Shown one piece after another: positions 155 to 60,087 of a stretch of DNA of 64,000 bases; position 1 is the first letter of the stretch; each line of letters begins with the position of its first letter. The notes beneath the pieces are model-generated. The model was not told where the DNA came from. It saw only the letters and a list, made by a program, of their open reading frames with translations, and ran no database searches. A program made the position numbers and the translations under genes. The stretch comes from Candidatus Pacearchaeota archaeon (GTDB lineage: Archaea > Nanobdellota > Nanobdellia > Pacearchaeales > GW2011-AR1), in contig JBBDJR010000006.1 in assembly GCA_040879785.1 (NCBI GenBank), forward strand, positions 64,410-128,409. Reading direction: 5' to 3'.

Positions 155-158
155 TAAG

Positions 159-176
159 CCGGCCACGCATGGACGG
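159..176 (+). repeat. REP-like hairpin copy 2 (CCGGCCA-CGCA-TGGACGG)
   Basis: Same stem / R-R mismatch / stem layout as the other copies. Confidence 0.6.
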
Positions 177-205
177 TTTTGTAGAGGGAGACTGAACAAA
201 GTGAA

Positions 206-347: not shown

Positions 348-397
348 TAAGGGGATTTGGGATGTAGTAGGCGTGAGGAACCCGCAGATGGTGCTCA

Positions 398-462
398 TTC
401 AAATCCCTTGGTCGGCCAAGCTTGGACGATCAAGAGTGAACCTGGTGAACTCTCCGGAACCA
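398..462 (+). repeat. Two degenerate direct copies of the tRNA-Lys 3' end (398-418 TTCAAATCCCTTGGTCGGCCA; 450-462 CTCTCCGGAACCA), with hairpin copy 3 at 412-429
   Basis: Compared by eye with the genuine 3' end TTCAAATCCCTCCGGGGCCA (328-347). Confidence 0.6.
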
Positions 463-2091: not shown

Positions 2092-4443
2092 ATGCCAAAA
2101 AGACCTCAAAAACCAAGAGAGCTAAAAATTGCAGAAGAATTTTTTCCAGCAGACCCTGGGAACATAAAATATTCTGTAGAAAAAAAGTTTAGTCCACTGA
2201 GTCCTTTAATAAATATTGAAGCTAAAAAACCTAGAAAAAAGACTCTCAAGACAAAAAGAGCAATAAAAAAGAAAACTGCAAGAAAAACCAAAAAGACAAC
2301 TAGGAAAAAAGCTACAAAGAAAAGGGCGACAAAAAGAGCAACAGAATTTAAGATTCCAAAAATAAAACTAAAGAAAGATGGTTACGAACTTATCGTAACG
2401 GAGAAACCTCAGGCAGCAGTAAAAATTGCAAACGCCCTCGGAAAATCCACAAAAAGAGTTATCAACGGAGTTTCTTATTATGAAATTGACCGGCCCGGAA
2501 AACAGGAAGGAATAATCGTCGCGTGCGCCGTCGGACACCTCTTCACATTAAAACAGGAAAAACCAAGAGTAAGCGGGCCTGTTTTTGATTTATTATGGGT
2601 TCCAAACCATTATGTAAGAAAAAACGATTTCAGTAAAAAATACCTGGACGTCATGACAAAACTTGCACGAAACGCCGGGGCAGTCACAATAGCGACAGAC
2701 TATGATATAGAAGGAGAGGTTATAGGACTCAATATAATCCGTTTCGCAGCAGGGCAAAAAGACGCCAACAGAATGAAATTCTCAACACTGACAGAAAAAG
2801 AACTTAATGACTCATATGAATCAAAATTAAAGAGCATTGATTGGGGCCAGGCAATTGCAGGAGAGACAAGGCATTTTCTTGACTGGTTTTACGGAATAAA
2901 TCTTTCAAGAGCACTAATGAAATCATTAAAATCTGTAGGAAAATTTAAGTTAATGTCTATAGGAAGAGTCCAGGGTCCCGCATTAAATCTCATAGTCAAA
3001 AAAGAAAAAGAAGTCCAAAAATTCAAACCAAAACCCTATTGGCAAATCTTCATAACACTTGAAGAACCAGAGATAGAACTTATTCACAACAAAGACATTT
3101 TTGATAAATCGGAGCTAAAAAAATTTGAAAACCTAATAGGAAAAACAGGGCAAGCAGAAACAAAAAAGAAAGAAAAAGAAATCCCTCCAAAAATCCCTTT
3201 CAACCTTACAACACTCCAAACAGAATCTTACAGGCTTTTTGGAATAAACCCATCAAAGACTCTCCAGCTCGCTCAAAGCCTTTATCTTAACGGGTTAATT
3301 TCATATCCAAGGACATCAAGCCAGAAACTCCCTCCTTCAATAAACTACAGATCCATTTTAAGCAAAATCGCAAAATCGTACAGAGCGGAAAAATTCATCA
3401 AAAGAGAAAAACCTGTTGAAGGAGAAAAATCCGACCCTGCGCACCCTTCAATATACCCTACAGGCGAAACAGAAAACCTACAATCCCTGTCTGATGACGA
3501 AAAAAAGATTTATGATTTAGTTGCAAGAAGGTTCCTATGCCTTTTCATGGAAAACGCGGTGATTGAAGACAAAAAAATAACAGTAAAAGTTGACGACCTC
3601 GGCTTCTACAAAAAAGGCTCAGAAATAAAAAACAAATCCTGGCTTCAGTTCTACCCTCAAAAAGTTAAGGAAGAAGAAATTCCTGATGTAAATGGAGAGG
3701 TGAAAGTTAAGGACTCAAGAAACGAAGAAAAAGAAACACAGCCTCCAAAAAGATTCACTCCGGCATCACTCGTCTCGGAACTTGAGAAAAGAAATCTCGG
3801 AACAAAGGCAACAAGATCCAATATCCTTGAAACTCTCTATAATAGAGGATACATAAAAGACCAAAGCATCAAACCAACTCCGTTAGGAATGTCCTTAATT
3901 GATACTCTTGAAAAGCACTCCCCTATAATAATTGACGAAAAGTTGACAAGAGAATTTGAAAACCAGATGGAATCTATACGGGAATCAGGAAAGAACAGCG
4001 ACGAAAAAAAGAATAATGTTATCAGCAAAGCAAAAGAAACCATAACCGAAATCTCAAATCAGTTCGACAAAAAACAAGAAACAATAGGCGAAGAAATCTC
4101 AAAAGCGAACGACAAGCTAAGAGAACAGCAAAAAGAAGAAAACAAACTTAATATTTGTCCTGTCTGTAAGAAGGGAAGTCTTGGAATTATGTACTCCAAA
4201 AAAACGAGGAGATATTTTGTTGCCTGCGACGCGTACCCTGACTGCAAAAACACCTACTCCCTGCCACCAAACGGACTAATAAAGAAAACGGACAAAATCT
4301 GCGAAGAATGCGGATTCCCAAAAGTCATGAGGCTGAGCAAAGGACGCCGGCCGTGGGAATTCTGCTTTAACAGAGATTGCCCAACAAACAAGAAGCGGAT
4401 TGAGGAATATAATCGGAGGAAAGCTGAAGAGGTGGAAGAATAG
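2092..4443 (+). CDS. topA: DNA topoisomerase, type IA, with a Lys-rich N-terminal extension and C-terminal zinc ribbons
   Basis: TOPRIM motifs ELIVTEKPQAA and TDYDIEGE, active-site region ISYPRTSSQKL, and two C-terminal Cys4 ribbons (CPVCKK...CDAYPDC and CEECG...CFNRDC). Confidence 0.9.
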   Translation: MPKRPQKPRELKIAEEFFPADPGNIKYSVEKKFSPLSPLINIEAKKPRKKTLKTKRAIKKKTARKTKKTTRKKATKKRATKRATEFKIPKIKLKKDGYELIVTEKPQAAVKIANALGKSTKRVINGVSYYEIDRPGKQEGIIVACAVGHLFTLKQEKPRVSGPVFDLLWVPNHYVRKNDFSKKYLDVMTKLARNAGAVTIATDYDIEGEVIGLNIIRFAAGQKDANRMKFSTLTEKELNDSYESKLKSIDWGQAIAGETRHFLDWFYGINLSRALMKSLKSVGKFKLMSIGRVQGPALNLIVKKEKEVQKFKPKPYWQIFITLEEPEIELIHNKDIFDKSELKKFENLIGKTGQAETKKKEKEIPPKIPFNLTTLQTESYRLFGINPSKTLQLAQSLYLNGLISYPRTSSQKLPPSINYRSILSKIAKSYRAEKFIKREKPVEGEKSDPAHPSIYPTGETENLQSLSDDEKKIYDLVARRFLCLFMENAVIEDKKITVKVDDLGFYKKGSEIKNKSWLQFYPQKVKEEEIPDVNGEVKVKDSRNEEKETQPPKRFTPASLVSELEKRNLGTKATRSNILETLYNRGYIKDQSIKPTPLGMSLIDTLEKHSPIIIDEKLTREFENQMESIRESGKNSDEKKNNVISKAKETITEISNQFDKKQETIGEEISKANDKLREQQKEENKLNICPVCKKGSLGIMYSKKTRRYFVACDAYPDCKNTYSLPPNGLIKKTDKICEECGFPKVMRLSKGRRPWEFCFNRDCPTNKKRIEEYNRRKAEEVEE

Positions 4444-4453
4444 AGAATAATAT

Positions 4454-4846
4454 TTAATCTTTCATCCTTAAATATCTCTCAATTAAACTTCTTGTACTTT
4501 TAGAGATTCTTACTTTGCTATTAGAATTATACCAAGTAACATATTTGACTTCTTTCCTTGGTCTTAAATGCCCGTAGGTTTTAATCAGGAAAACCTTAGC
4601 ATGATTTATAACATATTTTCCTTTATGGTCTTTCCACTTTCTTCCTTTATAACTAAAAAGATATTTTGCATTTTTTGTTTTAAGCCCTGTTTCTTCTCTC
4701 AACTCTCTTATGGCGGCTTTCTTTCTTGTTTCTTTTCCGTCAGCTCCGCCACCTGGAAGAGCAAAAAGCTTTCTCCCTCCAGCAACTACCAAGATTCCTT
4801 TTTCTGATTCTACAATAGCTACCCCTTTTCTTCTTATCCTAGTCAT
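4454..4846 (-). CDS. NUDIX hydrolase
   Basis: Nudix box GGADGKETRKKAAIRELREETGL. Confidence 0.8.
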   Translation of the reverse strand: MTRIRRKGVAIVESEKGILVVAGGRKLFALPGGGADGKETRKKAAIRELREETGLKTKNAKYLFSYKGRKWKDHKGKYVINHAKVFLIKTYGHLRPRKEVKYVTWYNSNSKVRISKSTRSLIERYLRMKD

Positions 4847-5471
4847 TTTTTAGTAAATTTATTGTTTTAGTATACAGCCTTTTACTTTTTGCTTCTCGTC
4901 TATTTAACAACCTTTTAAGCAAAAAATCATATTCATATAATATTCTCTTGTTCTTAATTAAAGTTACTCTAGCAAGAGTATATCTTAAATTAGATTCTCT
5001 TTTTCTGTCCATATATTTCTTAATCTTTTCAAACTTATTTTTTTCTAACTTCATAGCTATAGTGGCATGAGGATGATATTCTCTTATCATCTTAAAAAGT
5101 CCTAGAAAAGAACGAACATCTGTTGAACTTAAAATACAATATGATTTCAATTTATTAATTAAATCTCTCCTAAAACCAATTAATTCCTTACTAGGTTTTA
5201 TTTCTCTATAAACCACTCTTGTTTTACTAAAACTCCCAAAACCAGAAATATTAAATCTAATTAATGGGTGATTTTCACAGACTTGCTTAAAATCTTTCAC
5301 TAGTCTTTTTTGATTAGATGTAGAAAAAGGAGCTACAATTGTAATATGCGGGACAGGTCTTTTTAATTTAGCATTTCCCAATCTAAATTTTTTATCAACC
5401 TCATAAATTAATTTTTTTAAATCCCTTTTAGATTTTCCTTGAAATCTAAATTCTATTAAATAATGTGTCAT
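4839..5471 (-). CDS. 2H phosphoesterase superfamily protein (LigT / 2'-5' RNA ligase-like cyclic phosphodiesterase)
   Basis: Two HxT motifs (PHITIV and HPHATIA) at typical spacing. Overlaps the downstream Nudix gene by 8 nt. Confidence 0.65.
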   Translation of the reverse strand: MTHYLIEFRFQGKSKRDLKKLIYEVDKKFRLGNAKLKRPVPHITIVAPFSTSNQKRLVKDFKQVCENHPLIRFNISGFGSFSKTRVVYREIKPSKELIGFRRDLINKLKSYCILSSTDVRSFLGLFKMIREYHPHATIAMKLEKNKFEKIKKYMDRKRESNLRYTLARVTLIKNKRILYEYDFLLKRLLNRREAKSKRLYTKTINLLKND

Positions 5472-7864: not shown

Positions 7865-8545
7865 CTAGATTAGAGAGAAGAATTCTTTCTTCTTTCTTTT
7901 GAATGAAGCATAAATATCAGAATTAATAAACTCCTCTCTAAAGATAAGTCTTCGGTAAGAGTTAATGATTCCACTATCGTTTGAGATTAAAGCAGTTTTT
8001 CCTCTAAAAAAACTCAAAATACCTCCTTTAATCAATAAGTCATAATCCGGAAAACTCAACCCGTTGTCAGACATCAAATCCAAATTCCTACGATACATCT
8101 CCTCATGAAATCCCTTTTCATTCTCTTTAATACCCATAATCCTTTTTTGTTTTTTAAGAAGAGAGGTTAACTTTCGGGCTTCTTTTTGACTAGATAAAAA
8201 TCTTCCGTAAAGTTCTCTTTCTTTTTCAGGAACTCCATTAGAATAACCTCTCCCAACTAAACCTCTTGGTTCCCTAGAATTCTCATCATTCCCAGGCCTT
8301 AACTCATTAAGAATCTCCTTTGTTGAGCATAGCTCTCTATAACGCTTAAGGTTTTTTCTAAAAAATACTATGGAGTCTGTTTGAGTGTTATGGGTTTCTA
8401 TCTTTCCTTTCAATCCAGAATAATTTCCATTTGAGTCCAAGTAACTGATCAAAGCACAGGTATCAAGTAAAACAATATCAAAACTTTCACAAATTTCATC
8501 AAGACTCTTAATCTCTCCGTTTCCAACACCCTTCTGCATTCCCAA
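7865..8545 (-). CDS. PIN-like nuclease domain protein with a large insertion (paralog of 59374..60060)
   Basis: FDIVLLDTCALISYL (first Asp), STKEILNEL, PDYDLL, and TALISNDSGII (last acidic motif). Confidence 0.5.
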   Translation of the reverse strand: MGMQKGVGNGEIKSLDEICESFDIVLLDTCALISYLDSNGNYSGLKGKIETHNTQTDSIVFFRKNLKRYRELCSTKEILNELRPGNDENSREPRGLVGRGYSNGVPEKERELYGRFLSSQKEARKLTSLLKKQKRIMGIKENEKGFHEEMYRRNLDLMSDNGLSFPDYDLLIKGGILSFFRGKTALISNDSGIINSYRRLIFREEFINSDIYASFKRKKKEFFSLI

Positions 8546-8618
8546 CCCAAGAAATGAAGATTAAAAAGTTTTTATCTACTCTAGTGTTATATCCAACCTT
8601 TCCTAAAAACTCCTTAAT

Positions 8619-8637
8619 TTGACCACACTTGGGCGAA
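8619..8637 (+). repeat. REP-like hairpin copy 4 (TTGACCA-CACT-TGGGCGAA)
   Basis: Near-identical to the tRNA-Ile leader copy at 30395. Lies between radB and the PIN-like gene. Confidence 0.6.
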
Positions 8638-8652
8638 TTAGTGGCATATTTC

Positions 8653-9399
8653 TTACAACCATCCTTTACGAAATACGCCCTCGTTCCTTATCTCAAAACT
8701 CATTTCCTTCACCGGCAGACTCCTATGCTTAAGAAGAATCGCTTTTCTTTTCCCTGAATCGTTCTTCAATTCAATTATTGTTTTACTCCAATACTTAAAC
8801 AAATCCCCTCCGACTATATTCGATTCAGGCTTCACTCCTTTTTTCCATTCCTCCTCGGACAAAAACCCGTGATAAACCTGGTTTGTTATCATAACAGGAA
8901 GATTCTCTTTTCTAGAAATTTCCGAAAGAATTCTCATTTGTTTAGCAACCTCTCTGTTAATTTCTCTGACCTTACTATCATCTCTAGATTTCTGAGCGTC
9001 TCCGAGTTCAAGTCGGTAAAGCATCGCCATCCCGTCAACAACAATCATCCCAACATTTTCTTTTTTAACTCTGTTAAGAAGATTCGCAAAAATCTTTTTC
9101 TGCTCGTCAAAGTTCGTCGGATTCAATAAAAGAATATTCTCAAGAATTTTTTCATGACCATCTCCAACTATTTGTTTAACCCTTTCAGAGCTAAATCCTC
9201 CTTCAGTATCTATAAAAATAACCTTGCTATCTCTCTTAGCCTGACCGCACGCAGCCAGAAGAACAAAGTTCGTCTTTCCTGAAGCCGGAGGGCCCGCAAT
9301 CATACTTATCACACTTTTTTCGTATCCTCCGTAAAGCCATTTATTCAAATCAAAACTTCCCGCAGATATTTTATTGTCTGACATTTTACAAATAACCAT
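8653..9399 (-). CDS. radB: RadB-type RecA/RadA paralog ATPase
   Basis: Walker A GPPASGKTN, Walker B MIVVDG, and a size (248 aa) typical of RadB. Confidence 0.75.
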   Translation of the reverse strand: MVICKMSDNKISAGSFDLNKWLYGGYEKSVISMIAGPPASGKTNFVLLAACGQAKRDSKVIFIDTEGGFSSERVKQIVGDGHEKILENILLLNPTNFDEQKKIFANLLNRVKKENVGMIVVDGMAMLYRLELGDAQKSRDDSKVREINREVAKQMRILSEISRKENLPVMITNQVYHGFLSEEEWKKGVKPESNIVGGDLFKYWSKTIIELKNDSGKRKAILLKHRSLPVKEMSFEIRNEGVFRKGWL

Positions 9400-26478: not shown

Positions 26479-27255
26479 ATGGGTAAAATAATTGTTATTA
26501 CATCTGGAAAAGGGGGTGTAGGAAAAACCACTACGGCAATTAATCTGGCTGTAGCAATGAAGCATTTTGGAAAAGATGTATTGGTTGTCGACGGAAACCT
26601 GACTACGCCAAATATAGGTGTCCATCTAAACGCCCCGGAAGTTCCTATCAATTTAAACCATGTCTTAAGAGGTAAGGCCGAACTCTTTGAAGCAATATAT
26701 GAACATGAATCAGGAATAAAGATCATCCCTTCATCTTTATCTATAAAAGAATTAAGAAAAACAAAATCCGAGAAGCTTAAGAAATTAGGGAAGGAATTGA
26801 GGAAACATTCAGAGCACATAATAATTGATTGTGCTGCCGGACTTGGTGACGAAGCTACCCATTCGATAGAAACTGCAGACGAACTAATAATTGTTACAAA
26901 CCCTGAAATGCCTGCAATAACCGACGCTCTAAAGGCGATAAAAGTTGCCGAAGAAATGAAAATACCTGTGAAAGGAATTGTTGTAACAAGAGTCCGAAAA
27001 GACAATATAGAATTAACTCCTGAAGTTGTTAAAGAAATACTTGAAGTCCCTGTTTTGGGAATGATTCCCGAAGACAACGCAGTTAAGGAATCTATAAAAA
27101 TAAAAAATGCAGTTGTCCATCTAAGCCCAAAAAGCAACGCATCAAGAGCATACAAAGAAGTCGCAGCAAAAATTCTTGAAGTAGATTATGATTCTAACAA
27201 AGACAGAGAAAAAATGCTTGAAAGACTTCTAAGAAAATTAGGTCTGAGGGCTTAA
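26479..27255 (+). CDS. minD: MinD/ParA-family ATPase
   Basis: Deviant Walker A SGKGGVGKTT and a MinD-like overall pattern. Confidence 0.85.
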   Translation: MGKIIVITSGKGGVGKTTTAINLAVAMKHFGKDVLVVDGNLTTPNIGVHLNAPEVPINLNHVLRGKAELFEAIYEHESGIKIIPSSLSIKELRKTKSEKLKKLGKELRKHSEHIIIDCAAGLGDEATHSIETADELIIVTNPEMPAITDALKAIKVAEEMKIPVKGIVVTRVRKDNIELTPEVVKEILEVPVLGMIPEDNAVKESIKIKNAVVHLSPKSNASRAYKEVAAKILEVDYDSNKDREKMLERLLRKLGLRA

Positions 27256-27700: not shown

Positions 27701-28060
27701 CTAACTTATCTCGGAACCATTCTCAATATCTTTCTCGGGAGAAATCAAAACAACTTCTTTTTCCTTGCTCTCTTCTGAAATTGCCGAAGCAGCTAATAGC
27801 ATCCCCTGACTTTCAACACCTCTCAACTTTCTCGGCTTCAAATTTGAGAAATAAATTATTTTCTTTCCTTTCAAATCTTCATTGGAGTAGAACTCCTTCA
27901 ACCCCGCACAAACAACCCTCTCGCCAATTTCGGGACCAACGTCTAAAGAAATCTTATACAATTTATCTGCACCTTCGATATCTTCAACCTGTTTGATTTC
28001 TGCAACTCTTAAATCAAGTTTTACCCAATCCTCAAAATCAACTTCTTTTATACCTTCCAT
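27701..28060 (-). CDS. Stand-alone tRNA-binding OB domain (Trbp111/EMAP-like; MetRS C-terminal domain encoded separately)
   Basis: KLDLRVAEIKQVEDIEGADKLYKISLDVG...GVESQGMLLAA. Overlaps the metG stop by 13 nt. Confidence 0.8.
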   Translation of the reverse strand: MEGIKEVDFEDWVKLDLRVAEIKQVEDIEGADKLYKISLDVGPEIGERVVCAGLKEFYSNEDLKGKKIIYFSNLKPRKLRGVESQGMLLAASAISEESKEKEVVLISPEKDIENGSEIS

Positions 28061-29487
28061 TCTAATTTCCCAAACAAAACCTCGGACTTTTTAATTTTTT
28101 TCTTCTTCAAAGGCTTCAGAATTTCTTTTAAATCAATTTCAAACCCAAGCTGCTTAGCAATCTTCTCCGAAGCCAAAGGAATAAACGGCCACAACAAAAC
28201 CGCAATTACCTTGATGCTATCTAAAAGCACATAAAGAACTTTTTTATCTTTACTCTCCCATGGCTTTTTTTCCTGAACATACTCATTACAATAATCAACA
28301 AACGCAAAAATCTCATTAAGCGCCTTATCAAACTCATAATTCTCAACAAGTTTTTTTATCTTCCCCACATCAATTTTCTTAAGCAAATTATTTTCACATT
28401 TTTCAATACCAATTTTCTCTGCTAGCCCGGTAACTCTGCTAACTAAATTCCCTAGTTTATTCGCCAACTCATTATTATGTCTATCGACTAAAACCCTCTC
28501 AGAGAAATCTCCGTCCTCGCCAAAAACAAAATTCCTGCAAACGTAATATCTTATCGCATCAGAACTGTATTTCTCAACTAAAACCTTTGGAGAAATTGAA
28601 TTTCCAAGAGACTTTGAGATTTTCTGTCCGTTAAAAGTCAGGAATCCGTGAACAAAAACTGTCTTTGGAAGCTCATAGCCGGCAGACTTCAAAAACGCCG
28701 GCCAGTAAACGCAATGAAACCAGGAATTGTCTTTCCCAAGAAGATGGACATTCGCAGGCCAATACTCTCCCTTCTTTCCTGCTCCGGAAACATAATTAAA
28801 AAGCGCATCAAACCAGACATAAACAATATGTTTATCATCCAAAGGAAAACGAATTCCCCAGTCAAAAGACGTCCTCGAAATACTTAAATCTCTTAGTCCT
28901 TCCTTAACACGATTAATGATTTCATTTCTCCTTTCTTTTGGAAGAATAAATTCAGGATGTTTCTTATAAAGGTCCAACAAAAAATCCTGATAATTGCTCA
29001 ACCTAAAAAAATACGATTCTTCTTTAATATGTCTGATTGGCTTTTCGTGAAAAGGGCACTTCCCTTCAATCAAATCTTTCTCGGTGTAATATGCCTCACA
29101 ATCGGTGCAATACAAACCCTCATACTCTCCAAGATAGATATCCCCGTTATCATGACACTTTTTTATAACATCCTTAACCAACTTTTCGTGATCCTTATCT
29201 GTAGTTCTTATGAATCGGTCATAATTCACGTCAAGAATCTTCCAAGAATCCTTAAACTTCTCCGCCAACTCGTCAACAAGCTCCTTCGGAACTTTTCCTT
29301 GTTTCTCAGCAACTTCCTGAATTTTTTTCCCGTGTTCATCTGTTCCTGTTAAAAACCAGACATCATCTCCTTTAATTTTATTCCACCTTGCCAAAACGTC
29401 CGCTATTATCTTCTGGTATGCATGCCCGATATGAGGCTCGGCGCTAGGATAATCTATTGCAGTCGTAACATAAAATTTATTTTTCAT
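28048..29487 (-). CDS. metG: Methionyl-tRNA synthetase catalytic core
   Basis: HIGH (EPHIGHAY), KMSKS (KISKSLGN), and a Cys-containing CP insertion. Confidence 0.9.
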   Translation of the reverse strand: MKNKFYVTTAIDYPSAEPHIGHAYQKIIADVLARWNKIKGDDVWFLTGTDEHGKKIQEVAEKQGKVPKELVDELAEKFKDSWKILDVNYDRFIRTTDKDHEKLVKDVIKKCHDNGDIYLGEYEGLYCTDCEAYYTEKDLIEGKCPFHEKPIRHIKEESYFFRLSNYQDFLLDLYKKHPEFILPKERRNEIINRVKEGLRDLSISRTSFDWGIRFPLDDKHIVYVWFDALFNYVSGAGKKGEYWPANVHLLGKDNSWFHCVYWPAFLKSAGYELPKTVFVHGFLTFNGQKISKSLGNSISPKVLVEKYSSDAIRYYVCRNFVFGEDGDFSERVLVDRHNNELANKLGNLVSRVTGLAEKIGIEKCENNLLKKIDVGKIKKLVENYEFDKALNEIFAFVDYCNEYVQEKKPWESKDKKVLYVLLDSIKVIAVLLWPFIPLASEKIAKQLGFEIDLKEILKPLKKKKIKKSEVLFGKLEWKV

Positions 29488-29618: not shown

Positions 29619-30314
29619 ATGTTCGGAAAAAGAAAGTGTCCAAATTGCAGCGAGAAGATTAGCAACAGTTATAATTTCTGTCCATACTGCAGAGCACCAA
29701 CAAAAGAATTCTTTGAAGAAGATAGTGAGAACTGGGGGCTTCTCGGAAAAGATGACTCTCCAGAAAATAGCGAAAACATGATGCTCCCTTCAGGACTGGG
29801 TTCTTTATTCAACACGCTTCTAAAAAGTCTGAACAATCAGGTAAGGGAACTAGAAGAATTAGAAAGACCTAAAAAAACTCAGGACAAAAACAACAAATCT
29901 AAAATAAGAAAGGGCGGAATCAGTATAAGTATCCACACTTCTGAGGGTAAACCTCCTATGATAAAAGTCGCTTCATTCGGAAATATGCCTAATTTTAAGA
30001 AAAACGAAGAGAAAATGGAAGAAACAGTTAAGCCTATTCAATTACCCTCTTCAAACTCTAAAAAATTTGCCGGGCTTCCAAAAGAAGAGCCAAAAACAAA
30101 CATAAGGAGATTCTCTGATAAAGTAATCTATGAGATAAATATGCCCGGAGTAAAATCAGCAGATGACATCTCAATCTCTCAACTAGAGAAGAGTATTGAA
30201 ATTAAAGCGCTTGGAAAAGGCAAGGTCTTCAATAAAATCATTCCTATAAACCTCCCAATAAAAAGATATAACTTCTCAAAAAAGAAATTAACTCTTGAGC
30301 TTGACGCAGAATAA
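29619..30314 (+). CDS. Zinc-ribbon protein with a C-terminal Hsp20/alpha-crystallin-like domain
   Basis: CPNC...CPYC at the N-terminus. The C-terminal segment VIYEINMPGVKSADDISISQLEKSIEIKA...LTLEL is ACD-like. Start set at the ATG at 29619. Confidence 0.5.
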   Translation: MFGKRKCPNCSEKISNSYNFCPYCRAPTKEFFEEDSENWGLLGKDDSPENSENMMLPSGLGSLFNTLLKSLNNQVRELEELERPKKTQDKNNKSKIRKGGISISIHTSEGKPPMIKVASFGNMPNFKKNEEKMEETVKPIQLPSSNSKKFAGLPKEEPKTNIRRFSDKVIYEINMPGVKSADDISISQLEKSIEIKALGKGKVFNKIIPINLPIKRYNFSKKKLTLELDAE

Positions 30315-30343
30315 ATTAAGACTTCTCCGCAAATTAACAAAAC

Positions 30344-30351
30344 TTATAAAA
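30344..30351 (+). promoter_or_regulatory. TATA-box-like element (TTATAAAA) about 30 nt upstream of the outer tRNA-Ile 5' copy
   Basis: Position relative to 30378. No TATA-like element lies at -30 of the intact tRNA (30437). Confidence 0.4.
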
Positions 30352-30377
30352 CCTAGTAGTCCTTATTTTTTATCAAA

Positions 30378-30390
30378 GAGCCTGTAACTC
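30378..30390 (+). repeat. Direct copy of tRNA-Ile nt 1-13 (GAGCCTGTAACTC)
   Basis: Exact 13-nt match to 30437-30449. Confidence 0.85.
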
Positions 30391-30417
30391 TGGTTTGACC
30401 ACGCGTGGGCGAATCAG
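30390..30417 (+). repeat. REP-like hairpin copy 5, extended 12-bp imperfect palindrome (CTGGTTTGACCA-CGCG-TGGGCGAATCAG)
   Basis: Hand-paired: 9 Watson-Crick pairs, 2 G-U pairs and 1 A-G mismatch. Confidence 0.65.
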
Positions 30418-30436
30418 TAGTGAGGGCTAACGAAGG

Positions 30437-30510
30437 GAGCCTGTAACTCAGCCAGGTAGAGTGCCACTCTGATAAGGTGGAAGTCCACGGTTCAAATCCG
30501 TGCAGGCTCA
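30437..30510 (+). tRNA. tRNA-Ile (anticodon GAU), intronless
   Basis: Cloverleaf GAGCCUG-UA-ACUC-AGCCAGGUA-GAGU-G-CCACU-CUGAUAA-GGUGG-AAGUC-CACGG-UUCAAAU-CCGUG-CAGGCUC-A. Confidence 0.9.
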
Positions 30511-30589
30511 TGGGATTTGAAGCGCTTGCGGTTTCGTTCGGATTTCTATAAGAAAGGCGGACGAGGTTCGGAACTTCAGTTCCAGGGCC

Positions 30590-30607
30590 CAAATCCGTGC
30601 AGGCTCA
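30590..30607 (+). repeat. Direct copy of the tRNA-Ile 3' end (CAAATCCGTGCAGGCTCA)
   Basis: Exact 18-nt match to 30493-30510; ends exactly at the discriminator base. Confidence 0.85.
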
Positions 30608-30673
30608 TCAAATCTACCCGTAATTTATTTAGAAGACCAAAGAGCTTTTAAACCAACTTTTTCTCAATAAAAC

Positions 30674-31246
30674 ATGGTCAAAGGATTATATCATTATTTA
30701 AGGGAAGCCTGGAAAAAACCAGAGAAGAAAGTCCTCAGAGAAAGAATGGTCGAGTGGAGAAAATCTCCGGTGCTTGAGAAAGTTGAAAAGCCATTAAGAA
30801 TTGACAGAGCGAGAGCGCTTGGATATAAAGACAAGAAGGGATTTGTTGTCGTTAGAGCAAGAATTAAAAGAGGCGGGCATAAAAGACAAAGGCCAAACAA
30901 AGGGAGAAGAAGTAAGAGACTTCACACTCGAAAAAATTTGAGGATGAATTACAAACAAATAGCAGAACAAAGAGTCGCAAGAAAATTCACAAACCTTGAA
31001 GTCATAAACTCATACCTGATTGGAAAAGACGGAATTTATTATTTTTACGAAATAATTCTTGTAGACCCTGAAAGACCCGAGATAAAAAAGGACAAAACTC
31101 TGAACAGGTCAGTTAAATCAGGAAACAGAAAAAAAGCTTTCCGCGGACTAACGAGCTCAGGAAAAAAATCCAGAGGTTTAAGAAATAAAAGTCCTGAATC
31201 AAAAACAAGACCGAGTCTAAGAGCAAACAAAAGAAGAGGGAAATAA
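30674..31246 (+). CDS. rpl15e: 50S ribosomal protein L15e
   Basis: MVKGLYHYLREAWKKP N-terminus; basic throughout. Confidence 0.9.
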   Translation: MVKGLYHYLREAWKKPEKKVLRERMVEWRKSPVLEKVEKPLRIDRARALGYKDKKGFVVVRARIKRGGHKRQRPNKGRRSKRLHTRKNLRMNYKQIAEQRVARKFTNLEVINSYLIGKDGIYYFYEIILVDPERPEIKKDKTLNRSVKSGNRKKAFRGLTSSGKKSRGLRNKSPESKTRPSLRANKRRGK

Positions 31247-40950: not shown

Positions 40951-41023
40951 GTCCTGGTAGCTCAGTTGGTAGAGCGCACGGCTGTTAACCGTGAAGTCGT
41001 AGGTTCGAGTCCTACCCGGGACG
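40951..41023 (+). tRNA. tRNA-Asn (anticodon GUU), intronless
   Basis: Cloverleaf GUCCUGG-UA-GCUC-AGUUGGUA-GAGC-G-CACGG-CUGUUAA-CCGUG-AAGUC-GUAGG-UUCGAGU-CCUAC-CCGGGAC-G. Confidence 0.9.
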
Positions 41024-41147
41024 TTTGTGTGTAGGACGAAGAAAGGATGCAGGATCGAAAACCCGCAGGTGGTTTTCAGGTTCGACGAGCAAGTTCGCGA
41101 GAATAAATTCTTTAGCAAAAATTAAAATCCGAGAGGGCTTGCGAGCT

Positions 41148-41162
41148 GTCCTACCCAGGACG
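41148..41162 (+). repeat. Direct copy of the tRNA-Asn 3' end (GTCCTACCCAGGACG)
   Basis: 14 of 15 nt match 41009-41023. The single difference turns the acceptor G-U pair into A-U. Confidence 0.8.
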
Positions 41163-49359: not shown

Positions 49360-49737
49360 TTAAAGCATCACACTATCTTTAAAATTATTGAAGTGAGGAT
49401 CTCCCGTCAGAACCTTGGCATTATTCACTCTGGCAGTATGCATTATAATTACATCTGTTATTCCTATTTTTTTCTCTTTCTTTTTCATTTTATTATAAAA
49501 GCCCCCGAAAGAAAGAATAAACTCGTCATTAACTCCAACTATCTTAGACTTCATTTTTATAAAACTAAAAAACTTATTAAAACTCCATCCTTCCTTATTT
49601 GACTTATAGCTTAATTCCAGAAGAACAATTGCCGGAGTGATCACCTCGTCATTATCAAGGTAGTTCTTTACGGTTTCTCCCTTTTTAGACCCTTCAAAAA
49701 ACTCTATCCAGGCATAAGTATCAAAAACTATTGCCAT
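49360..49737 (-). CDS. vapC: PIN-domain toxin VapC
   Basis: IVFDTYAWIE, VLLEL, ITDVIIM and LTGDPHF acidic quartet. Confidence 0.8.
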   Translation of the reverse strand: MAIVFDTYAWIEFFEGSKKGETVKNYLDNDEVITPAIVLLELSYKSNKEGWSFNKFFSFIKMKSKIVGVNDEFILSFGGFYNKMKKKEKKIGITDVIIMHTARVNNAKVLTGDPHFNNFKDSVML

Positions 49738-51951: not shown

Positions 51952-53307
51952 CTAACCCCTCTCAAACCCCTTAGCAATCCTCAACATCTTTTCTTCCTGA
52001 AATTTATCACAAACAATCTGCATTCCGACCGGAACTCCATCAACCTCTCCGGCAGGAACAGAAACCGCACAGTTTTCTGCCAGGTTTGAAGGTGCCGTCA
52101 ACAAATCATAGCTATACATTTCTTCAACAGAAATTTTTTCTCCAATTTTATGAGGAAGTTTTGGAACCGTCGGAGAAATGATACAATCAAACTTTTTAAA
52201 CGCTTTTTCAAACTCCTTAATAATCAGGCTCTTGGATTTTAATGCAAGATGATAATGCCTTCCGTGATATTCTTCTTTTGAAATCTCACTGCCGCCAAGA
52301 ACTCTCCTTAAAACTTCTGGACCTGAAGCATCCTCAATTTTCTTTCCATAACGCCTTCCGTCCAAACGCCTTGTGGCCGAGAAAAACTCGACATAAACTA
52401 AAGGGTAATACGTCTCAACAGCCAACTCAATATTCTCTATTTTCACTTCCTTAACATCAAATCCTTTATTGGAGGCGACTTCGCTTATCCTTTCTTCAAC
52501 CAAGTCCTGAATCTTTTTATCAACTCCTTTAACTTTTAAGACACCAATAGTCAACTTTTTATCTTTATTATTGAGATTCTTCAAATTAACTTTCTCCGAA
52601 TCCTGCGAGGTAGAATCATTCCTATCTTTCCCTGAAATAACACTTAGAAGCAATGCAGCGTCAGAAACATTTCTTGCCAAAGGACCAATCTGGTCTAAGC
52701 TCATTGACAAATCAATCAATCCGTAACGAGAAACACTTGAATAAGTTGGCTTCACTCCGACAACCCCACAATGAGACGAAGGATTTCTTATGCTTCCTCC
52801 AGTGTCCGAGCCAAGAGCCACATCACAAAAACCCGCAGCGACGGCAGCGGCCGAACCCGAAGAAGAGCCTCCAGGAATCAAGTCAGGATTCCGCGGATTT
52901 CTCGTCGGTCCAAAGGCAGAAGTCTCGCCACTACTACCCGAACAAAATTCATCACAATTTGTTATCCCAATTATGATTCCTCCTTCATCTTCTATCTTCT
53001 TAATGACTGTTGCATTATAGGGAGCTTTGTAATCTTCTAAAACCTTGGAACCACAAGAGATATTATAACCCTTAACATTTATAGAAGCCTTGACAGCTAT
53101 ACACAAACCAAATAATTTTTTAGTTTTTAATTTTTGCCTGTTTTTGTCTAAATATTCTGCTCTTTTCAAACACAAATCAGGTCTAATATCAATAAAGGCA
53201 TTAATTTGCGGGTTTTCTTTTTTAATTTTTTCAAGAAAATTAGTTACATTCTGCTTAACCGTTAACTTTCCAGTTCTTAATAAATTTAGCTTATGACTTA
53301 ATTCCAT
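51952..53307 (-). CDS. gatA: Glutamyl-tRNA(Gln)/Asp-tRNA(Asn) amidotransferase subunit A (amidase signature)
   Basis: GGSSSGSAAAVAAG and GSDTGGSIR motifs. Confidence 0.9.
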   Translation of the reverse strand: MELSHKLNLLRTGKLTVKQNVTNFLEKIKKENPQINAFIDIRPDLCLKRAEYLDKNRQKLKTKKLFGLCIAVKASINVKGYNISCGSKVLEDYKAPYNATVIKKIEDEGGIIIGITNCDEFCSGSSGETSAFGPTRNPRNPDLIPGGSSSGSAAAVAAGFCDVALGSDTGGSIRNPSSHCGVVGVKPTYSSVSRYGLIDLSMSLDQIGPLARNVSDAALLLSVISGKDRNDSTSQDSEKVNLKNLNNKDKKLTIGVLKVKGVDKKIQDLVEERISEVASNKGFDVKEVKIENIELAVETYYPLVYVEFFSATRRLDGRRYGKKIEDASGPEVLRRVLGGSEISKEEYHGRHYHLALKSKSLIIKEFEKAFKKFDCIISPTVPKLPHKIGEKISVEEMYSYDLLTAPSNLAENCAVSVPAGEVDGVPVGMQIVCDKFQEEKMLRIAKGFERG

Positions 53308-54400
53308 TATGATTATTTTCCATTAAATTTAATTGTTCCCTTGGGATATATCCTTTTGGATTTTTGTTCAAAAGTTTCAAAGCTCTATAAACATAAACAC
53401 TTCTTATCTTTCCCTTATTTGAAGGATATGTCCATGACTCAACACTTCTCAAAGATTTTATATATTTATATCTTGCCTTAATGTTTAATAATTCCTCATC
53501 CAATTTTTTAATCCTAATCTCTCTAAATAAATTTTTTAATTCTTGATTTAAGGGGATTGTTAATTTTCCTAAAAAATCTTCGCCCAAAAATATCTTGTTT
53601 GCGCTATATCTTCTCTTTTTATGGGAAAGTAATGGAACAATCTGTTTATAAAATTCCCAAGAATTCATAAATCCTGCAGTTTGTAAAGATAGTCTTCCAG
53701 TATCGCTTCTCCTTGATATGGAACAATTAATTCCCAATCTACCCAATAATTGTTTAGTTTGCTTAATCAGTTTATTGGAAGATGTTGAAATACAAAAATT
53801 TGCATGATCCAATATTGGCTTATTTTTTAAATAATAGTATTGAATATAACCATCTCCGTCAAAAAGCCCTGCCACAAAAGATTTTAGGATTTCTTTATCT
53901 TCTGACACCATAATTTGGAGAGGAACCTCCACAATTCTAACCTTTTTTCCTAAAGGAATTTTATAGTACTTGTTTAGAATATACCGAAGAGGAACCGAAG
54001 AGATATTTGCTTCTTTTCCATCAAAACTAAAGGTTAAATTGGTTTCATATTCTCTATTTATTATATCCAAATAATCATGGATTAGTCCTATATCTTTCTG
54101 ACACAACTTAACTCTTCCCTCAGTTGACAACAAAGAACCATCCGTAATAATGAACCCAAGTAACTTAGCTATTTTTGGAGTTGTTTCTTTTTGAAAAGAA
54201 AGAATTTTTCCAGATCTTCCCCTTAATTTCATTCCATCAAGAAAATTCCACATTTGATTTTTGGATATATTTATTTTATTAAGATTAATCATGTTCTTAT
54301 TTTTATCCCGGGAAGTTAGATTAATTGAACCTTTGACTCTACTAAGGATAACTTTATCCGTCTCAACATACAAATCAGGAAGATATATTTTATTGGCCAT
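53291..54400 (-). CDS. Free-standing double-motif LAGLIDADG endonuclease-like protein
   Basis: LLGFIITDGSL and FVAGLFDGDGYIQ about 100 aa apart. Overlaps the gatA start by 17 nt. Confidence 0.7.
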   Translation of the reverse strand: MANKIYLPDLYVETDKVILSRVKGSINLTSRDKNKNMINLNKINISKNQMWNFLDGMKLRGRSGKILSFQKETTPKIAKLLGFIITDGSLLSTEGRVKLCQKDIGLIHDYLDIINREYETNLTFSFDGKEANISSVPLRYILNKYYKIPLGKKVRIVEVPLQIMVSEDKEILKSFVAGLFDGDGYIQYYYLKNKPILDHANFCISTSSNKLIKQTKQLLGRLGINCSISRRSDTGRLSLQTAGFMNSWEFYKQIVPLLSHKKRRYSANKIFLGEDFLGKLTIPLNQELKNLFREIRIKKLDEELLNIKARYKYIKSLRSVESWTYPSNKGKIRSVYVYRALKLLNKNPKGYIPREQLNLMENNHNGIKS

Positions 54401-58576: not shown

Positions 58577-59371
58577 TTATTGGTCATACTTCTTCATGAC
58601 CTTCTTTATAGAATCGCTTATCTCAGCTAGAGAAATATTCATTCTACCACTTCTTAATAATTCTTCATAAACATTAAGTGTTAAGTCTTCTGGAATTTCT
58701 TCGGTCTTATTGGAAGAAGTTAGTTCTCCAGAACCTCTTAAGCTCAACATTGTTTTACTTATCTCATCCATAAGATCTTTTTTTGAAGATTTAAGACTTG
58801 TTCTCCAAAGTTTAGCAAATTTTTGATTATCATAATCCTTAACTACAACCCCCTCTCTTCCATAATTAGAATACTTACTTTCCCAAAGAGCTAATTTTTT
58901 AACGTCTCCAATCTCCAGCTTTCCCTCCGCAAGAGGTTCTAAAAAAAGAATCTTTTCTATTCCAGAATCGTTTAAGATCTCTCGTGAACTAGAGTAGGGA
59001 ATAAACCGATCTTCAGAGATTTTATAAAGATCAATTAAAAAGAATTTATTTGTAAATTCTGGTTTATAATTGATAGTATGAGGAGACATGAATTCCCCAT
59101 AAACAACAAAATCTTCAGAAAGATTATAAAGAGTGTAGTTTGATTTTGCCCAATTATTAAAATCTTTAAACCAATTAAATCTAAAATACTCTTCTCTTGT
59201 TAGAAAGTTTGCCCTGCTTCCTGTCAAAATCTGACCATTTAACACCCTAATCTGAGAATTACCTCCATCTAATTTCTCAAATACCTGTAACCTATCACTC
59301 TCCAAAATTTCTGGCACTTCTGTAAGATGAGGTATTGAAGGATATTTTATAAAATCTGTGTCTTGAACCAT
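58577..59371 (-). CDS. ATP-dependent RNA-ligase-like nucleotidyltransferase (KxDG family)
   Basis: KYPSIPHL; motif I EKLDGGN (Lys33); motif III VVYGEFM; motif IV FFLIDLY; motif V REGVVVKDYDNQKFAKL. Confidence 0.6.
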   Translation of the reverse strand: MVQDTDFIKYPSIPHLTEVPEILESDRLQVFEKLDGGNSQIRVLNGQILTGSRANFLTREEYFRFNWFKDFNNWAKSNYTLYNLSEDFVVYGEFMSPHTINYKPEFTNKFFLIDLYKISEDRFIPYSSSREILNDSGIEKILFLEPLAEGKLEIGDVKKLALWESKYSNYGREGVVVKDYDNQKFAKLWRTSLKSSKKDLMDEISKTMLSLRGSGELTSSNKTEEIPEDLTLNVYEELLRSGRMNISLAEISDSIKKVMKKYDQ

Positions 59372-59373
59372 TT

Positions 59374-60060: not shown

Positions 60061-60087
60061 CCCTTTTTAATTATAACATTCTAACAA

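Follow-up and report, generated by a model that had tools for sequence, protein, structure and literature searches.

The tRNA-Ile(GAU) gene in the 64-kb window, the whole stretch of 64,000 nucleotides of Candidatus Pacearchaeota DNA analysed here, is an ordinary intact gene that has acquired two small non-coding cassettes, one on each side. We lean, with somewhat more confidence than doubt, towards the explanation that these are small insertion cassettes that duplicate their tRNA target, are co-transcribed with it as a self-folding leader and trailer, and are removed by ordinary end processing. Cassette families of this type appear to have spread among the tRNA genes and genomes of the lineage, the phylum Nanobdellota in GTDB.

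The inner gene is called tRNA-Ile GAU by ARAGORN and scores 67.5 bits against the Rfam tRNA family RF00005, whose gathering score is 29, and it keeps its cloverleaf when the region is folded as a whole (coordinates are collected in Table 1). The initial annotation had described this tRNA as bracketed by exact copies of its own ends, and it is: GAGCCTGTAACTC, nt 1-13 of the tRNA, lies at 30378-30390 and 30437-30449 (spacing 59), and CAAATCCGTGCAGGCTCA, nt 56-73, at 30493-30510 and 30590-30607 (spacing 97). The outer 5' copy covers the acceptor 5' strand, U8, A9 and the D-stem 5' strand, and carries the same lineage-specific A10 as the inner tRNA. The 3' copy was said to stop exactly at the discriminator base; an 18-nt copy does end there, but identity runs one base further (T, 30608), and upstream it continues into a decayed version of the T arm (28 nt, 89%; 30581-30608). 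Neither end copy was found elsewhere in the 64-kb window, and the chance expectation within 300 nt, assuming uniform base frequencies, is about 5e-6 for the 13-nt and 4e-9 for the 18-nt repeat. An assembly artefact looks unlikely because a second assembly (Logan contig, SRR27977663, L082), which may share the reads of the window, is identical across the 366 overlapping bases (window 30300-30665). Exact-protein look-ups for strain variants of the locus returned no other assembly beyond this identical one.

Table 1. Coordinates of the tRNA genes, cassettes and cassette parts in the 64-kb window.
Feature	Position	Strand	Description
tRNA-Lys(CUU) leader cassettes U0, U1, U2	29-205	+	three cassettes
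U0	29-81	+	degenerate 5-nt copy GTCTC and hairpin module 31-63
U1	82-141	+	begins with GGCTCCGTAGCTC = tRNA nt 1-13
U2	142-205	+	begins with GGCTCCGTAGCTC = tRNA nt 1-13
tRNA-Lys gene	206-347	+	
tRNA-Lys 3' cassette	348-462	+	anti-T-loop box GGGGATTTGG
Solo hairpin module	8612-8644	+	intergenic, no tRNA adjoining; R1 41.8 bits
TATA-like box TTATAAAA	30344-30351	+	ancestral tRNA-Ile promoter, now before outer 5' copy
Outer 5' direct repeat	30378-30390	+	exact copy of tRNA-Ile nt 1-13
Hairpin module	30388-30420	+	8 bp, A.G mismatch, CCA/UGG, tetraloop; covariance model R1, 43.6 bits
Anti-copy AGTAGTGAGGGCT	30416-30428	+	pairs with outer-copy nt 2-6 and 10-12
Linker AACGAAGG	30429-30436	+	purine-rich, single-stranded, between leader hairpin and tRNA G1; unpaired in whole-transcript fold
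tRNA-Ile(GAU)	30437-30510	+	intact, 74 nt, without intron; ARAGORN, Rfam RF00005
3' cassette body	30511-30589	+	core GGTTTCGTTYG...CGRACGA, hairpin 30534-30564; second hairpin 30565-30589
Inverted T-arm copy GGATTTGAAGCG	30513-30524	+	complementary to CGGTTCAAATCC (30488-30499); start of 3' cassette
Outer 3' direct repeat	30590-30608	+	exact copy of tRNA-Ile nt 56-73 and next T
tRNA-Asn gene	40951-41023	+	
tRNA-Asn 3' cassette	41024-41162	+	ends in GTCCTACCCAGGACG

The promoter shows which of the two 5' ends is in the ancestral place. The TATA-like box starts at -34 relative to the outer G1, while positions -45 to -22 before the inner G1 hold nothing TATA-like. In L001, the closest relative found, the homologous promoter AAAACTTATAAAACCT serves an uninterrupted tRNA-Ile from -35, and thus the outer copy occupies the ancestral tRNA start. 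The earlier proposals that the sole TATA-like box serves the outer copy, and that a primary transcript should start with the extra copy followed by a hairpin, both stand, the hairpin being a recurrent and covarying module. Strict initiation at +1, as in Nanoarchaeum, does not follow, because the spacing of TATA boxes in the lineage, with a mode of -31/-32, spreads from -29 to -44. By sequence reading, a TATA-like sequence lies just 5' of the inner tRNA in four of the 5' units examined (L034, L040, L051 and L065), whereas the TATA scan scored only L040 and L051 as having one; sequence reading also places T-rich stretches 3' of the outer 3' copies in relatives.

The 5' cassette consists of 46 nt plus the 13-nt repeat and lies between the ancestral promoter and tRNA-Ile. 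The hairpin and the GTAGTGAGGGCT box noted earlier are both present, and the hairpin module is common to 5' cassettes, 3' cassettes and solo copies, with 96% of cells paired in the R1 seed alignment and both sides changed in 5 of 11 pairs. The GGGCT of the box had been expected to pair with nt 2-6 of the real tRNA; in the lowest-energy folds GGGCU pairs with the outer copy instead, closing a stem-loop of about 50 nt. The lowest-energy fold of the leader reaches -22.7 kcal/mol on the sense strand (z -3.0; antisense z -0.5), and linkers resembling AACGAAGG (GAACAAAG and the like) recur in L073 and in the tRNA-Lys units of the window.

The 3' cassette, of 79 nt plus the 18-19-nt repeat, lies between tRNA-Ile and its ancestral downstream flank and folds with a z-score of -3.65. 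It begins with an inverted repeat of the T arm (I4, 92% complementary), and in other tRNAs this anti-T-loop box follows the variant of the T loop, such as GATTCGAA beside TTCGAATC in L022. The trailer is homologous to the trailers of L051, L072 and L073 (alignment A4), and also to cassettes at tRNA-Lys, tRNA-Thr and tRNA-Ile(UAU). The whole region folds as three independent domains that leave the inner cloverleaf intact, and the sense strands of the cassettes fold better than the antisense strands. Within the trailer, a strong BHB-like motif (30530-30575), with UUCGGAU as the anticodon-like loop that it would leave, was treated as a chance occurrence; its pairing is, by eye, not evident in the homologues from L051, L072 and L073, and it competes with the conserved hairpin.

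A census of 88 tRNAs from related Pacearchaeota and Woesearchaeota loci, in which a copy was defined by at most 2 mismatches in 13 nt and exact 11-mers were also run, revealed a strict polarity. Direct copies of the 5' end lie upstream of 14 of the 88 tRNAs and direct copies of the 3' end downstream of 17, all at a distance of no more than 300 nt, while there are no copies on the wrong side and two inverted ones, which is chance level. Cassettes accompany the isoacceptors Ile-GAU, Ile-UAU, Lys-CUU/UUU, Thr-UGU, Arg-UCG, Asn-GUU and Gln-CUG, and the unit is laid out as the tRNA end, a short linker, a partial complement of that end, one or more hairpins and the exact copy. At tRNA-Ile, the duplicated segment runs from nt 1 to the border of D stem and D loop on the 5' side, and from C56 in the T loop to the discriminator on the 3' side; over all units the repeats measure 5-23 nt (5' side) and 12-19 nt (3' side), and the inserts are non-coding and 46-190 nt long. 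Units come and go between relatives: L001 has no 5' unit, yet shares with the window the same promoter and upstream (small heat-shock-like) gene, a 55-nt 5' unit of L055 is absent from L028, and an 85-nt 3' unit of L028 is absent from L055. In these empty and filled pairs (L001 and the window, L028 and L055), the flanks resume exactly after the repeat. Where the copies differ, the impaired one is the outer one (L048, L051, L053 and the tRNA-Lys of the window).

Moreover, cassette cores recur at Ile, Lys, Thr and Arg tRNAs. The core GGTTTCGTTYGAAAT...ATTTCGGACGA stands 3' of tRNA-Lys (L090, L101), tRNA-Thr (L100, L110) and tRNA-Ile (L051), each time ending in a copy of the local tRNA from C56. 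Between L100 and L110, this core is 98.6% identical, whereas the tRNA is only 87% identical and the flanks cannot be aligned; the order of cassettes also differs. Arrays are found as well, with at least three identical 112-nt periods in L104 and tandem units in L022 and at the tRNA-Lys of the window, and in one case (L146) the hairpin module is antisense to its tRNA. The orthologous loci L090 and L101, whose flanks share about 90% identity, show the same two substitutions in the T-stem 3' strand and in the outer copy. The anti-copy of 5' units matches the acceptor strand of their own tRNA (GGGCT for Ile, GGAGAC for Lys), while the complementarity between trailer spacer and 3' copy is better for matched than for mismatched pairs, though weakly (permutation p ~0.02) and inconsistently.

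Other cassettes of the window belong to several families, which differ among the tRNAs of one genome. In the U0 leader of tRNA-Lys, which is kept in L139, L166, L170 and L172, 98.9% of cells are paired and 3 pairs show compensatory changes. The 3' copy of the same tRNA is split and partly degraded (TTCAAATCCCT, 398-408, and CTCCGGAACCA, 452-462), being interrupted by a hairpin module (405-437). The copy that closes the tRNA-Asn cassette (41148-41162) has one mismatch to the tRNA-Asn 3' end, and a module of this trailer, GGATGCAGGATCGAAAACCCGCAGGTGGTTTT, matches a canonical intron of the tRNA-Ile(UAU) of L105 (BLAST, 86% over 35 nt). The R1 module is present in five copies in the 64 kb, of which the solo one sits between the ORFs 7865-8539 and 8653-9399, and more solo copies occur in L144 and L173; at solo copies no target duplication is evident. 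A search of the whole window with all Rfam families (E<=1) returned four tRNAs only and no ribozyme, sRNA or RNase P RNA.

It had also been suggested that the gene's true 5' exon could be the outer copy, with the 59-nt interval as an intron-like element. Extended to both sides, this would make the outer copies the real exon ends and have the 59- and 97-nt intervals, inner copy included, spliced out, possibly without RNase P. Removal in register would yield the same tRNA by sequence, the promoter and the T-rich stretch are positioned for the outer copies, and these copies track lineage-specific substitutions (A10 in the window; L072 and L073; L090 versus L101); moreover, relatives carry multiple non-canonical introns and one trailer module matches a canonical intron. 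This reading is, however, highly improbable. A custom finder detected no in-register BHB or relaxed helix-bulge motif for the 59- and 97-nt intervals, for 20 other units (22 units together) or for the tRNA-Lys leaders, whereas it recovers the canonical introns of L018, L040, L051, L065 and L073 in full, that is, with a 4-bp central and a 5-bp outer helix; in L028 and L034 the outer helix has 4 bp and the intron length is 2 nt off, and L048 gives no match. The apparent BHB matches reflect the self-complementarity (GAGC/GCTC) of tRNA nt 1-4 and 10-13, and no strong leader-trailer BHB exists at 30436/30437 or 30510/30511. In addition, the complete inner tRNA folds as a cloverleaf in the precursor, several 5' units have a TATA-like sequence before the inner tRNA, units are gained and lost between relatives, the degraded copies are the outer ones, and the TATA spacing is too loose to imply leaderless transcripts. 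The locus is likewise neither a disrupted nor a split or permuted tRNA gene: a contiguous 74-nt tRNA-Ile is present and the pieces are redundant copies around it. As regards RNase P, the scanned ORFs of the window encode none of its components; the literature reports one or more RNase P proteins in the archaeal genomes examined, and no HARP in DPANN (PMC6380272).

Three further readings were weighed. Leader and trailer may be functional RNA modules under selection, with a merely secondary resemblance to mobile elements, which would overlap with insertion cassettes rather than exclude them; candidate roles are protection of the precursor ends, binding sites for proteins, the timing of folding or processing, and small RNAs produced by tRNA-processing enzymes. 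The preservation of hairpin pairing by compensatory changes points in this direction, as do the tRNA-Lys leader conserved in five genomes, the trailer core ATTTGAA..GGTTTCGTTYG..CGRACGA kept where the flanking genes are about 73-77% identical, the preference of G.U pairs and z-scores for the sense RNA, the anti-T-loop box that tracks the T-loop variant, and the slightly better matched complementarity of spacer and copy (permutation p ~0.02). We nevertheless regard it as unlikely as the primary explanation: many close relatives, L001 included, have no units, the families vary between the tRNAs of one genome, the hairpin also occurs solo and once antisense to its tRNA, closing stems that use the 3' copy are not conserved among homologous trailers, and no Rfam family matches. 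Classical scars, in which kilobase-size plasmids or viruses integrated at tRNA ends and decayed to their att-proximal arms, seem very unlikely, although integrases characteristically leave a tRNA terminus directly repeated next to a reconstituted tRNA (PMC3293823, PMC9897764), the repeats span from the D or T loop to the mature terminus like att identity blocks, and the tRNA-Ile flips its orientation and changes its neighbours among relatives. End copies lying more than 300 nt from their own tRNA, the marks of large integrated elements, are absent from every locus and from the 64-kb window, no integrase was found in the scanned ORFs, and elements decaying independently would not converge again and again on one structured unit of 55-64 or 66-80 nt, or on a single core, up to 98.6% identical, beside different tRNAs. 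Finally, it is barely credible that whole tRNA genes were duplicated in tandem and then decayed into the units, with pseudogenes on both sides of the live copy. The 5' unit of L021 does end in GTTCGCTGCAGCCTCA, which resembles a tRNA 3' end (this fits that 5' unit only), and the anti-copy GTGAGGGCTA of the window resembles GTGCAGGCTCA; but 3' units begin with a T-loop complement that is absent from any tRNA, decay would not always spare exactly the outward-facing end, the conserved cores common to different tRNAs are not tRNA-like, and unit interiors show no above-chance identity to tRNA bodies.

On the preferred explanation, the insertion cassettes would act like very small mobile or duplicative elements that copy their target as they insert. 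The closest known parallels are integrases, which duplicate att sites, and casposases, which duplicate their target site at the 3' ends of tRNAs. The whole array would be transcribed as one precursor, which is expected because the promoter lies outside the 5' copy and the T-rich stretch outside the 3' copy. Within it, each extra tRNA end would pair with an internal anti-sequence, as folding partly shows, so that leader and trailer are predicted to form closed stem-loops, leaving the real acceptor, D and T stems free of competition; RNase P and tRNase Z, the ordinary end-processing enzymes, would then release the 74-nt tRNA. Several points weigh against this explanation. The scanned ORFs of the window yielded no enzyme that could mobilise the cassettes, matches in viral contigs are at chance, and the repeat length is variable, as a fixed-stagger transposase would not produce. 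A fixed mobile sequence would not carry the anti-copy, because this matches the acceptor strand of each tRNA, and the anti-copy thus needs later selection or generation from the target. The substitutions shared by L090 and L101 would require re-insertion, gene conversion or selection, and the conservation of the tRNA-Lys leader (five genomes, compensatory changes) and of the tRNA-Ile trailer core could reflect function beyond mere tolerance. Moreover, transcription and processing are here deduced from the DNA.

How archaeal tRNA genes become interrupted, fragmented and split is a long-standing question, and the only route documented so far runs through kilobase-size elements, which insert and leave fragments of the tRNA in their wake. 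Here, a similar footprint, a tRNA end copied beside an intact gene, comes from units of a few dozen bases that are abundant (either tRNA end has them in roughly one case out of six, among 88), turn over between relatives, form arrays and have one module in common with a canonical intron. Tentatively, and with more doubt than conviction, the units may represent an undescribed class of ultra-small (~45-100 nt) non-coding cassettes that, in Nanobdellota, home to the borders of tRNA D and T loops and copy the end of the tRNA; a sequence masking the additional copy would be either brought along or acquired, and modules would be traded with BHB introns. A literature search of incomplete coverage returned no description of such an arrangement. 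If this reading holds, the cassettes would be an active source of interrupted tRNA genes, giving rise to new introns, to tRNA fragments and possibly to splits, and the machinery that mobilises them could act at the RNA level. They supply many natural before-and-after pairs for working out the mechanism, their long structured leaders and trailers confuse tRNA annotation, and by implication these reduced genomes still possess an endonuclease that can separate a leader of 59 to 200 nt from a tRNA.

A Pfam scan of 73 ORFs of the window (468-58565) detected no integrase, transposase or Cas1. The scan passed over five ORFs (58577-62559 and 62795-63900) and the ORFs 26479-27255, 27701-28060 and 28048-29487, whose counterparts in the gene table are a ParA/MinD-like ATPase, a tRNA-binding protein and a class I aminoacyl-tRNA synthetase, respectively. 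Cassette cores gave zero or chance-level matches in IMG/VR viral contigs, none of them adjoining tRNAs. Among known systems, the attL/attR sites of archaeal plasmids and viruses (SSV- and pNOB8-type) are alike in that an intact tRNA gene stands beside a direct copy of its terminus that ends at the mature end, with the reconstituted tRNA at one junction of the insert, and in that 5' fragments lie upstream with the old promoter and 3' fragments downstream. Integrase-mediated insertion is known to leave such repeats beside a reconstituted tRNA, and partial tRNA repeats are on record, namely a tRNA-Thr 5' fragment in Caldiarchaeum (PMC3293823) and tRNA fragments in Thermococcaceae (PMC9897764). 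In those cases, however, 1.8-23 kb lie between repeats of about 27-44 bp and a recombinase is encoded, whereas the inserts described here are non-coding, hairpin-forming and 46-190 nt long, with no integrase among the 73 ORFs, and the cassette families are common to different tRNAs, occupy both gene ends and form tandem arrays.

Casposons offer a second likeness, since a casposase of the Cas1 family integrates at the 3' end of tRNA-Pro in Aciduliprofundum boonei (PMC6614799). Insertion at or overlapping a tRNA 3' end, a staggered integration that leaves a direct duplication (14-15 bp), a T-loop sequence TCAAATC that is the recognised target motif, and repeated insertion that can yield repeat-insert-repeat arrays are all reminiscent of the cassettes, and repeat duplication during CRISPR spacer acquisition is analogous. 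Casposons, however, measure kilobases and bring with them terminal inverted repeats, a polymerase and a casposase, and their fixed duplication starts 8 bp downstream of the T-loop motif, whereas the duplication here has its start at C56, within the T loop, or close to C61, and its end at the discriminator. The cassettes have no terminal inverted repeats, judging by the two cassette ends in the L090 sequence; no Cas1 was found in the scanned part of the window; and 5' cassettes exist too. MITE- or REP-like elements resemble the cassettes in being short non-coding palindromic units in several copies per genome, some of them solo, intergenic and unlinked to any gene, with a strand polarity and with compensatory changes that keep the stem. 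Unlike these, most cassette copies are tied to tRNA termini, their duplications are long and variable, they are complementary to their particular tRNA, and no transposase was seen in the window; to our knowledge, no cognate transposase has been described for the cassettes.

BHB introns, the transposition of introns in Thermoproteales and split or permuted tRNA genes have reportedly been treated by Fujishima et al. 2010, Chan et al. 2011 and Randau et al. 2005. The D and T loops are known places of non-canonical introns and splits, and the breakpoints of the cassettes lie in the same loops. As in BHB-intron systems (reviewed, with split and permuted tRNA genes, in PMC4033280 and PMC3218864), related short sequences are found at different positions of different tRNA genes, and one trailer module matches a canonical intron in L105. 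Unlike BHB introns and split genes, the cassettes have junctions without a BHB, leave the tRNA uninterrupted, and duplicate the exon ends instead of separating them.

The tRNA-Ile(GAU) gene discussed here belongs to a Pacearchaeota-like DPANN archaeon, whose gene for ribosomal protein L15e (30674-31246) shares no more than 81% identity with those of Pacearchaeota, Woesearchaeota, and Nanoarchaeota MAGs. The initial annotation described this tRNA as bracketed by exact copies of its own first 13 and last 18 nt, and both are confirmed here (see the table), a second assembly being identical to the window across 366 overlapping bases of this locus. Between each outer copy and the tRNA lies a cassette with a stretch complementary to the duplicated end, the anti-copy. 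In the 5' unit this is AGTAGTGAGGGCT, which pairs with tRNA nt 2-6 and 10-12, while that of the 3' unit, GGATTTGAAGCG, is complementary to the T loop and T stem. The same anatomy is found in every unit, which runs outward from the tRNA through a short linker, the complement of the adjacent tRNA end, and one or two hairpins to the direct copy. The 5' copies begin at +1 (sometimes -1) and stop anywhere from nt 5 to nt 23, with nt 13-16 the most frequent end point. The 3' copies, 18-19 nt long when they begin at C56 and 12-14 nt when they begin near C61, stop at the discriminator or one T past it. Folding of the whole tRNA-Ile region predicts three independent domains and formation of the inner cloverleaf. 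A well-formed helix-bulge-helix-bulge-helix motif also lies inside the trailer (30530-30575), and its cleavage would yield a 7-bp stem capped by the loop UUCGGAU (anticodon-like CGG); since no equivalent pairing is evident by eye in the homologous trailers of relatives, this motif is probably due to chance.

tRNA genes of the window with end copies, their cassettes, and hairpin modules
Feature	Position	Remarks
tRNA-Lys(CUU)	206-347	three leader cassettes, 29-205; trailer, 348-462
Third, older tRNA-Lys leader unit	29-81	
Exact copies of tRNA-Lys nt 1-13	82-94 and 142-154	two, upstream
Broken 3' copy of tRNA-Lys	398-408 and 452-462	downstream
tRNA-Ile(GAU)	30437-30510	
Exact repeat of first 13 nt of tRNA-Ile	30378-30390	
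Repeat of last 18 nt of tRNA-Ile	30590-30607	C56 to discriminator; the next T is also repeated
Degraded T-arm copy of tRNA-Ile	back to 30581	extends the outer 3' copy
tRNA-Asn	40951-41023	3' cassette, 41024-41162
3'-end copy of tRNA-Asn	41148-41162	15 nt, one mismatch, downstream
Hairpin module	31-63, 152-184, 405-437, 8612-8644, 30388-30420	five copies by covariance model

Elsewhere in the window, the 3' copy of tRNA-Lys is split by a hairpin module, and the tRNA-Asn trailer contains a AACCCGCAGGTGG module that is also present in the tRNA-Lys trailer (379-391) and in the canonical intron of the L105 tRNA-Ile(UAU). No end copies accompany tRNA-Arg(UCG) (62603-62736, minus strand). Within its intron (about 60 nt) are GGGTTTCGG and GGGAGAC strings that recall cassette motifs, and ARAGORN with default settings reports a shorter tRNA-Asp instead (62603-62694). 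The window also encodes, on the minus strand, a LAGLIDADG homing-endonuclease-like ORF (53291-54400) overlapping the end of an amidase (GatA-like) gene, a LigT-like protein (4839-5471), i.e., a 2H phosphoesterase of the "2'-5' RNA ligase" family, and a PIN-domain protein (49360-49737), none of them linked to the cassettes.

End copies were sought among 88 tRNAs, using 13-nt ends and allowing up to 2 mismatches. Direct copies of nt 1-13 occurred upstream in 14 instances and direct copies of the last 13 nt downstream in 17, while the controls stayed at chance level (0 on the wrong side, 2 inverted), and no copy was found more than 300 nt from its own tRNA. All loci come from metagenome assemblies, two contain N-masked stretches (L022 and L072), ARAGORN tRNA boundaries are sometimes one base off, and cassette family assignments are based on short alignments. 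In most of the 80 related loci, which were fetched via L15e (L001-L080), tRNA-Ile adjoins L15e on either strand and often bears introns. The strand is flipped in about one third of the genomes and the other neighbour is variable, and the tRNA marks a recurrent rearrangement breakpoint. In L001, a 139-codon ORF of unknown kind is inserted between the two genes. Many L15e-adjacent tRNA-Ile(GAU) genes of relatives (L011, L013, L014, L047, L058) contain two introns, the canonical one and another near 31/32 of the anticodon stem, and ARAGORN mis-types such genes as Arg, Glu, or Lys.

The hairpin of the tRNA-Ile 5' unit defines a module of 8 bp with a purine-purine mismatch, CCA/UGG, and a tetraloop, in whose seed alignment 96% of the cells are paired and both sides have changed in 5 of 11 pairs. 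Its covariance model also finds it in nine other loci (L073, L139, L144, L146, L157, L166, L170, L172, L173). Copies of the module lie in leaders, in trailers, and alone in intergenic regions. The solo copy of the window (8612-8644) lies between two minus-strand genes, for a protein with no Pfam match and a RadA/Rad51-like protein, and is preceded on the plus strand by an AT-rich promoter-like stretch. Only in L146 (about 3100-3320) is the module antisense to the adjoining tRNA, a tRNA-Gln(CUG) whose 3' cassette is bounded by a 17-nt copy, AATCCTGGAGGGGCTAT. Unit RNAs are predicted to fold better on the sense than on the antisense strand: short 5' units have sense z-scores of -0.9 to -5.4 (four of six between -2.3 and -5.4, the two of the window tRNA-Lys at about -0.9) and antisense z-scores of 0.0 to -1.2.

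It had been suggested that the outer copy could be the true 5' exon of tRNA-Ile and the 59-nt interval an intron-like element. A bulge-helix-bulge (BHB) finder was written for this analysis and recovered the canonical introns of seven of eight control tRNAs from relatives, five in full, with nothing for L048; it found no in-register BHB for the 59-nt interval, the 97-nt interval on the 3' side, 20 other units, or the tRNA-Lys leaders. Its weak recurrent matches correspond to GAGC/GCTC self-complementarity of the tRNA 5' end. The inner tRNA is, moreover, complete and forms a cloverleaf in the predicted fold, and the exon reading is not supported. It is also countered by the TATA-like sequences directly upstream of the inner tRNA in four of the 5' units examined (L034, L040, L051, L065), and by the fact that, wherever the copies differ, the outer one is damaged (L048, L051, L053, and the window tRNA-Lys), a comparison with a bias in that tRNA detection would miss a gene whose inner copy is damaged. 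The tRNA-Ile arrangement is not classed as a BHB intron.

The placement of the TATA-like box for the outer 5' copy is, on the other hand, corroborated: it starts at -34 from this copy, and the box of L001 starts at -35 from an uninterrupted tRNA-Ile. The L001 locus is the closest relative found, and it shares with the window the upstream gene and the promoter (AAAACTTATAAAACCT), which leads directly into tRNA-Ile; therefore, the outer copy represents the ancestral start and the 59 nt an insertion or duplication. A TATA-like motif starts at -45 to -22 in 72 of 91 tRNAs, peaking at -31/-32 (38 cases) with a tail to -44, spacings too spread to demonstrate strict +1 initiation. The 19 tRNAs lacking the motif are enriched for genes with 5' units, and no promoter is visible in the approximately 200 nt upstream of tRNA-Lys, as far as the window start. 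A tRNA-Lys leader of 55-60 nt is conserved in the window and four relatives (L139, L166, L170, L172), an arrangement that implies endonucleolytic generation of the mature 5' end. Among the 73 window ORFs scanned (468-58565), none encodes an RNase P component, integrase, transposase, or Cas1; as they cover at most about a tenth of such a genome, this absence says little.

Comparison of loci shows that the cassettes, which are predicted to be self-folding, are insertions with target duplication, in families common to several tRNAs. A 55-nt 5' unit, an 85-nt 3' unit, and a canonical intron distinguish L028 from L055, with exact resumption of the flanks after the repeats. The tRNA-Ile trailer of the window is homologous to those of L051, L072, and L073, and a pattern scan finds its core after tRNA-Lys (L090, L101), tRNA-Thr (L100, L110), and tRNA-Ile(UAU) (L105), as well as in the tandem array of L104, always terminating in a repeat of the adjoining tRNA from C56 onward. 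Between L100 and L110, this core is 98.6% identical over 71 nt, whereas the tRNA is 87% identical, the flanks are unalignable, and the cassettes stand in shuffled order. Moreover, a 35-nt module of the tRNA-Asn trailer is 86% identical to the canonical intron of the L105 tRNA-Ile(UAU), and the 3' unit of the window tRNA-Lys has an 87% match in a 5' unit of L073. Taken together, empty and filled sites, cores common to different tRNAs, shuffled order, and module matches point to cassettes that propagate from one tRNA gene to another and duplicate their target, and do not fit relics of unique events. Identical 3' cassettes are also repeated in tandem at the contig start of L104 (1-300; 112-nt period, at least 3 copies), and a doubled unit in L022 (2518-2800) reaches into an N-masked stretch.

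At the window tRNA-Ile, transcription would proceed from the ancestral promoter through leader cassette, tRNA, and trailer cassette to the ancestral T-rich stretch. Each anti-copy may then pair with the duplicated tRNA end and so shield the true acceptor, D, and T stems from its competition; such masking would account for the match between each anti-copy and its own tRNA. RNase P and tRNase Z would then release the tRNA.

Integrase-mediated insertion classically leaves a partial tRNA repeat next to a reconstituted tRNA gene, with an insert of 1.8-23 kb that codes for a recombinase (PMC3293823, PMC9897764). A mechanistic precedent is provided by the casposase of A. boonei, which recognises the T-loop TCAAATC and duplicates 14-15 bp at the tRNA-Pro 3' terminus (PMC6614799), although the cassettes show neither the terminal inverted repeats nor the fixed duplication length of casposons, and no Cas1 was found among the scanned window ORFs. 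Variable repeat length and parallel substitutions do not fit a simple transposon: the orthologous L090 and L101 share two identical substitutions in both the T-stem 3' strand and the outer copy, which require re-insertion, short-patch gene conversion, or selection. The hairpin module, in turn, behaves like a REP- or MITE-type repeat. The cassettes are thus filed as a variant of tRNA-targeted insertion that is a member of none of the integrase-footprint, casposon, and REP/MITE families.
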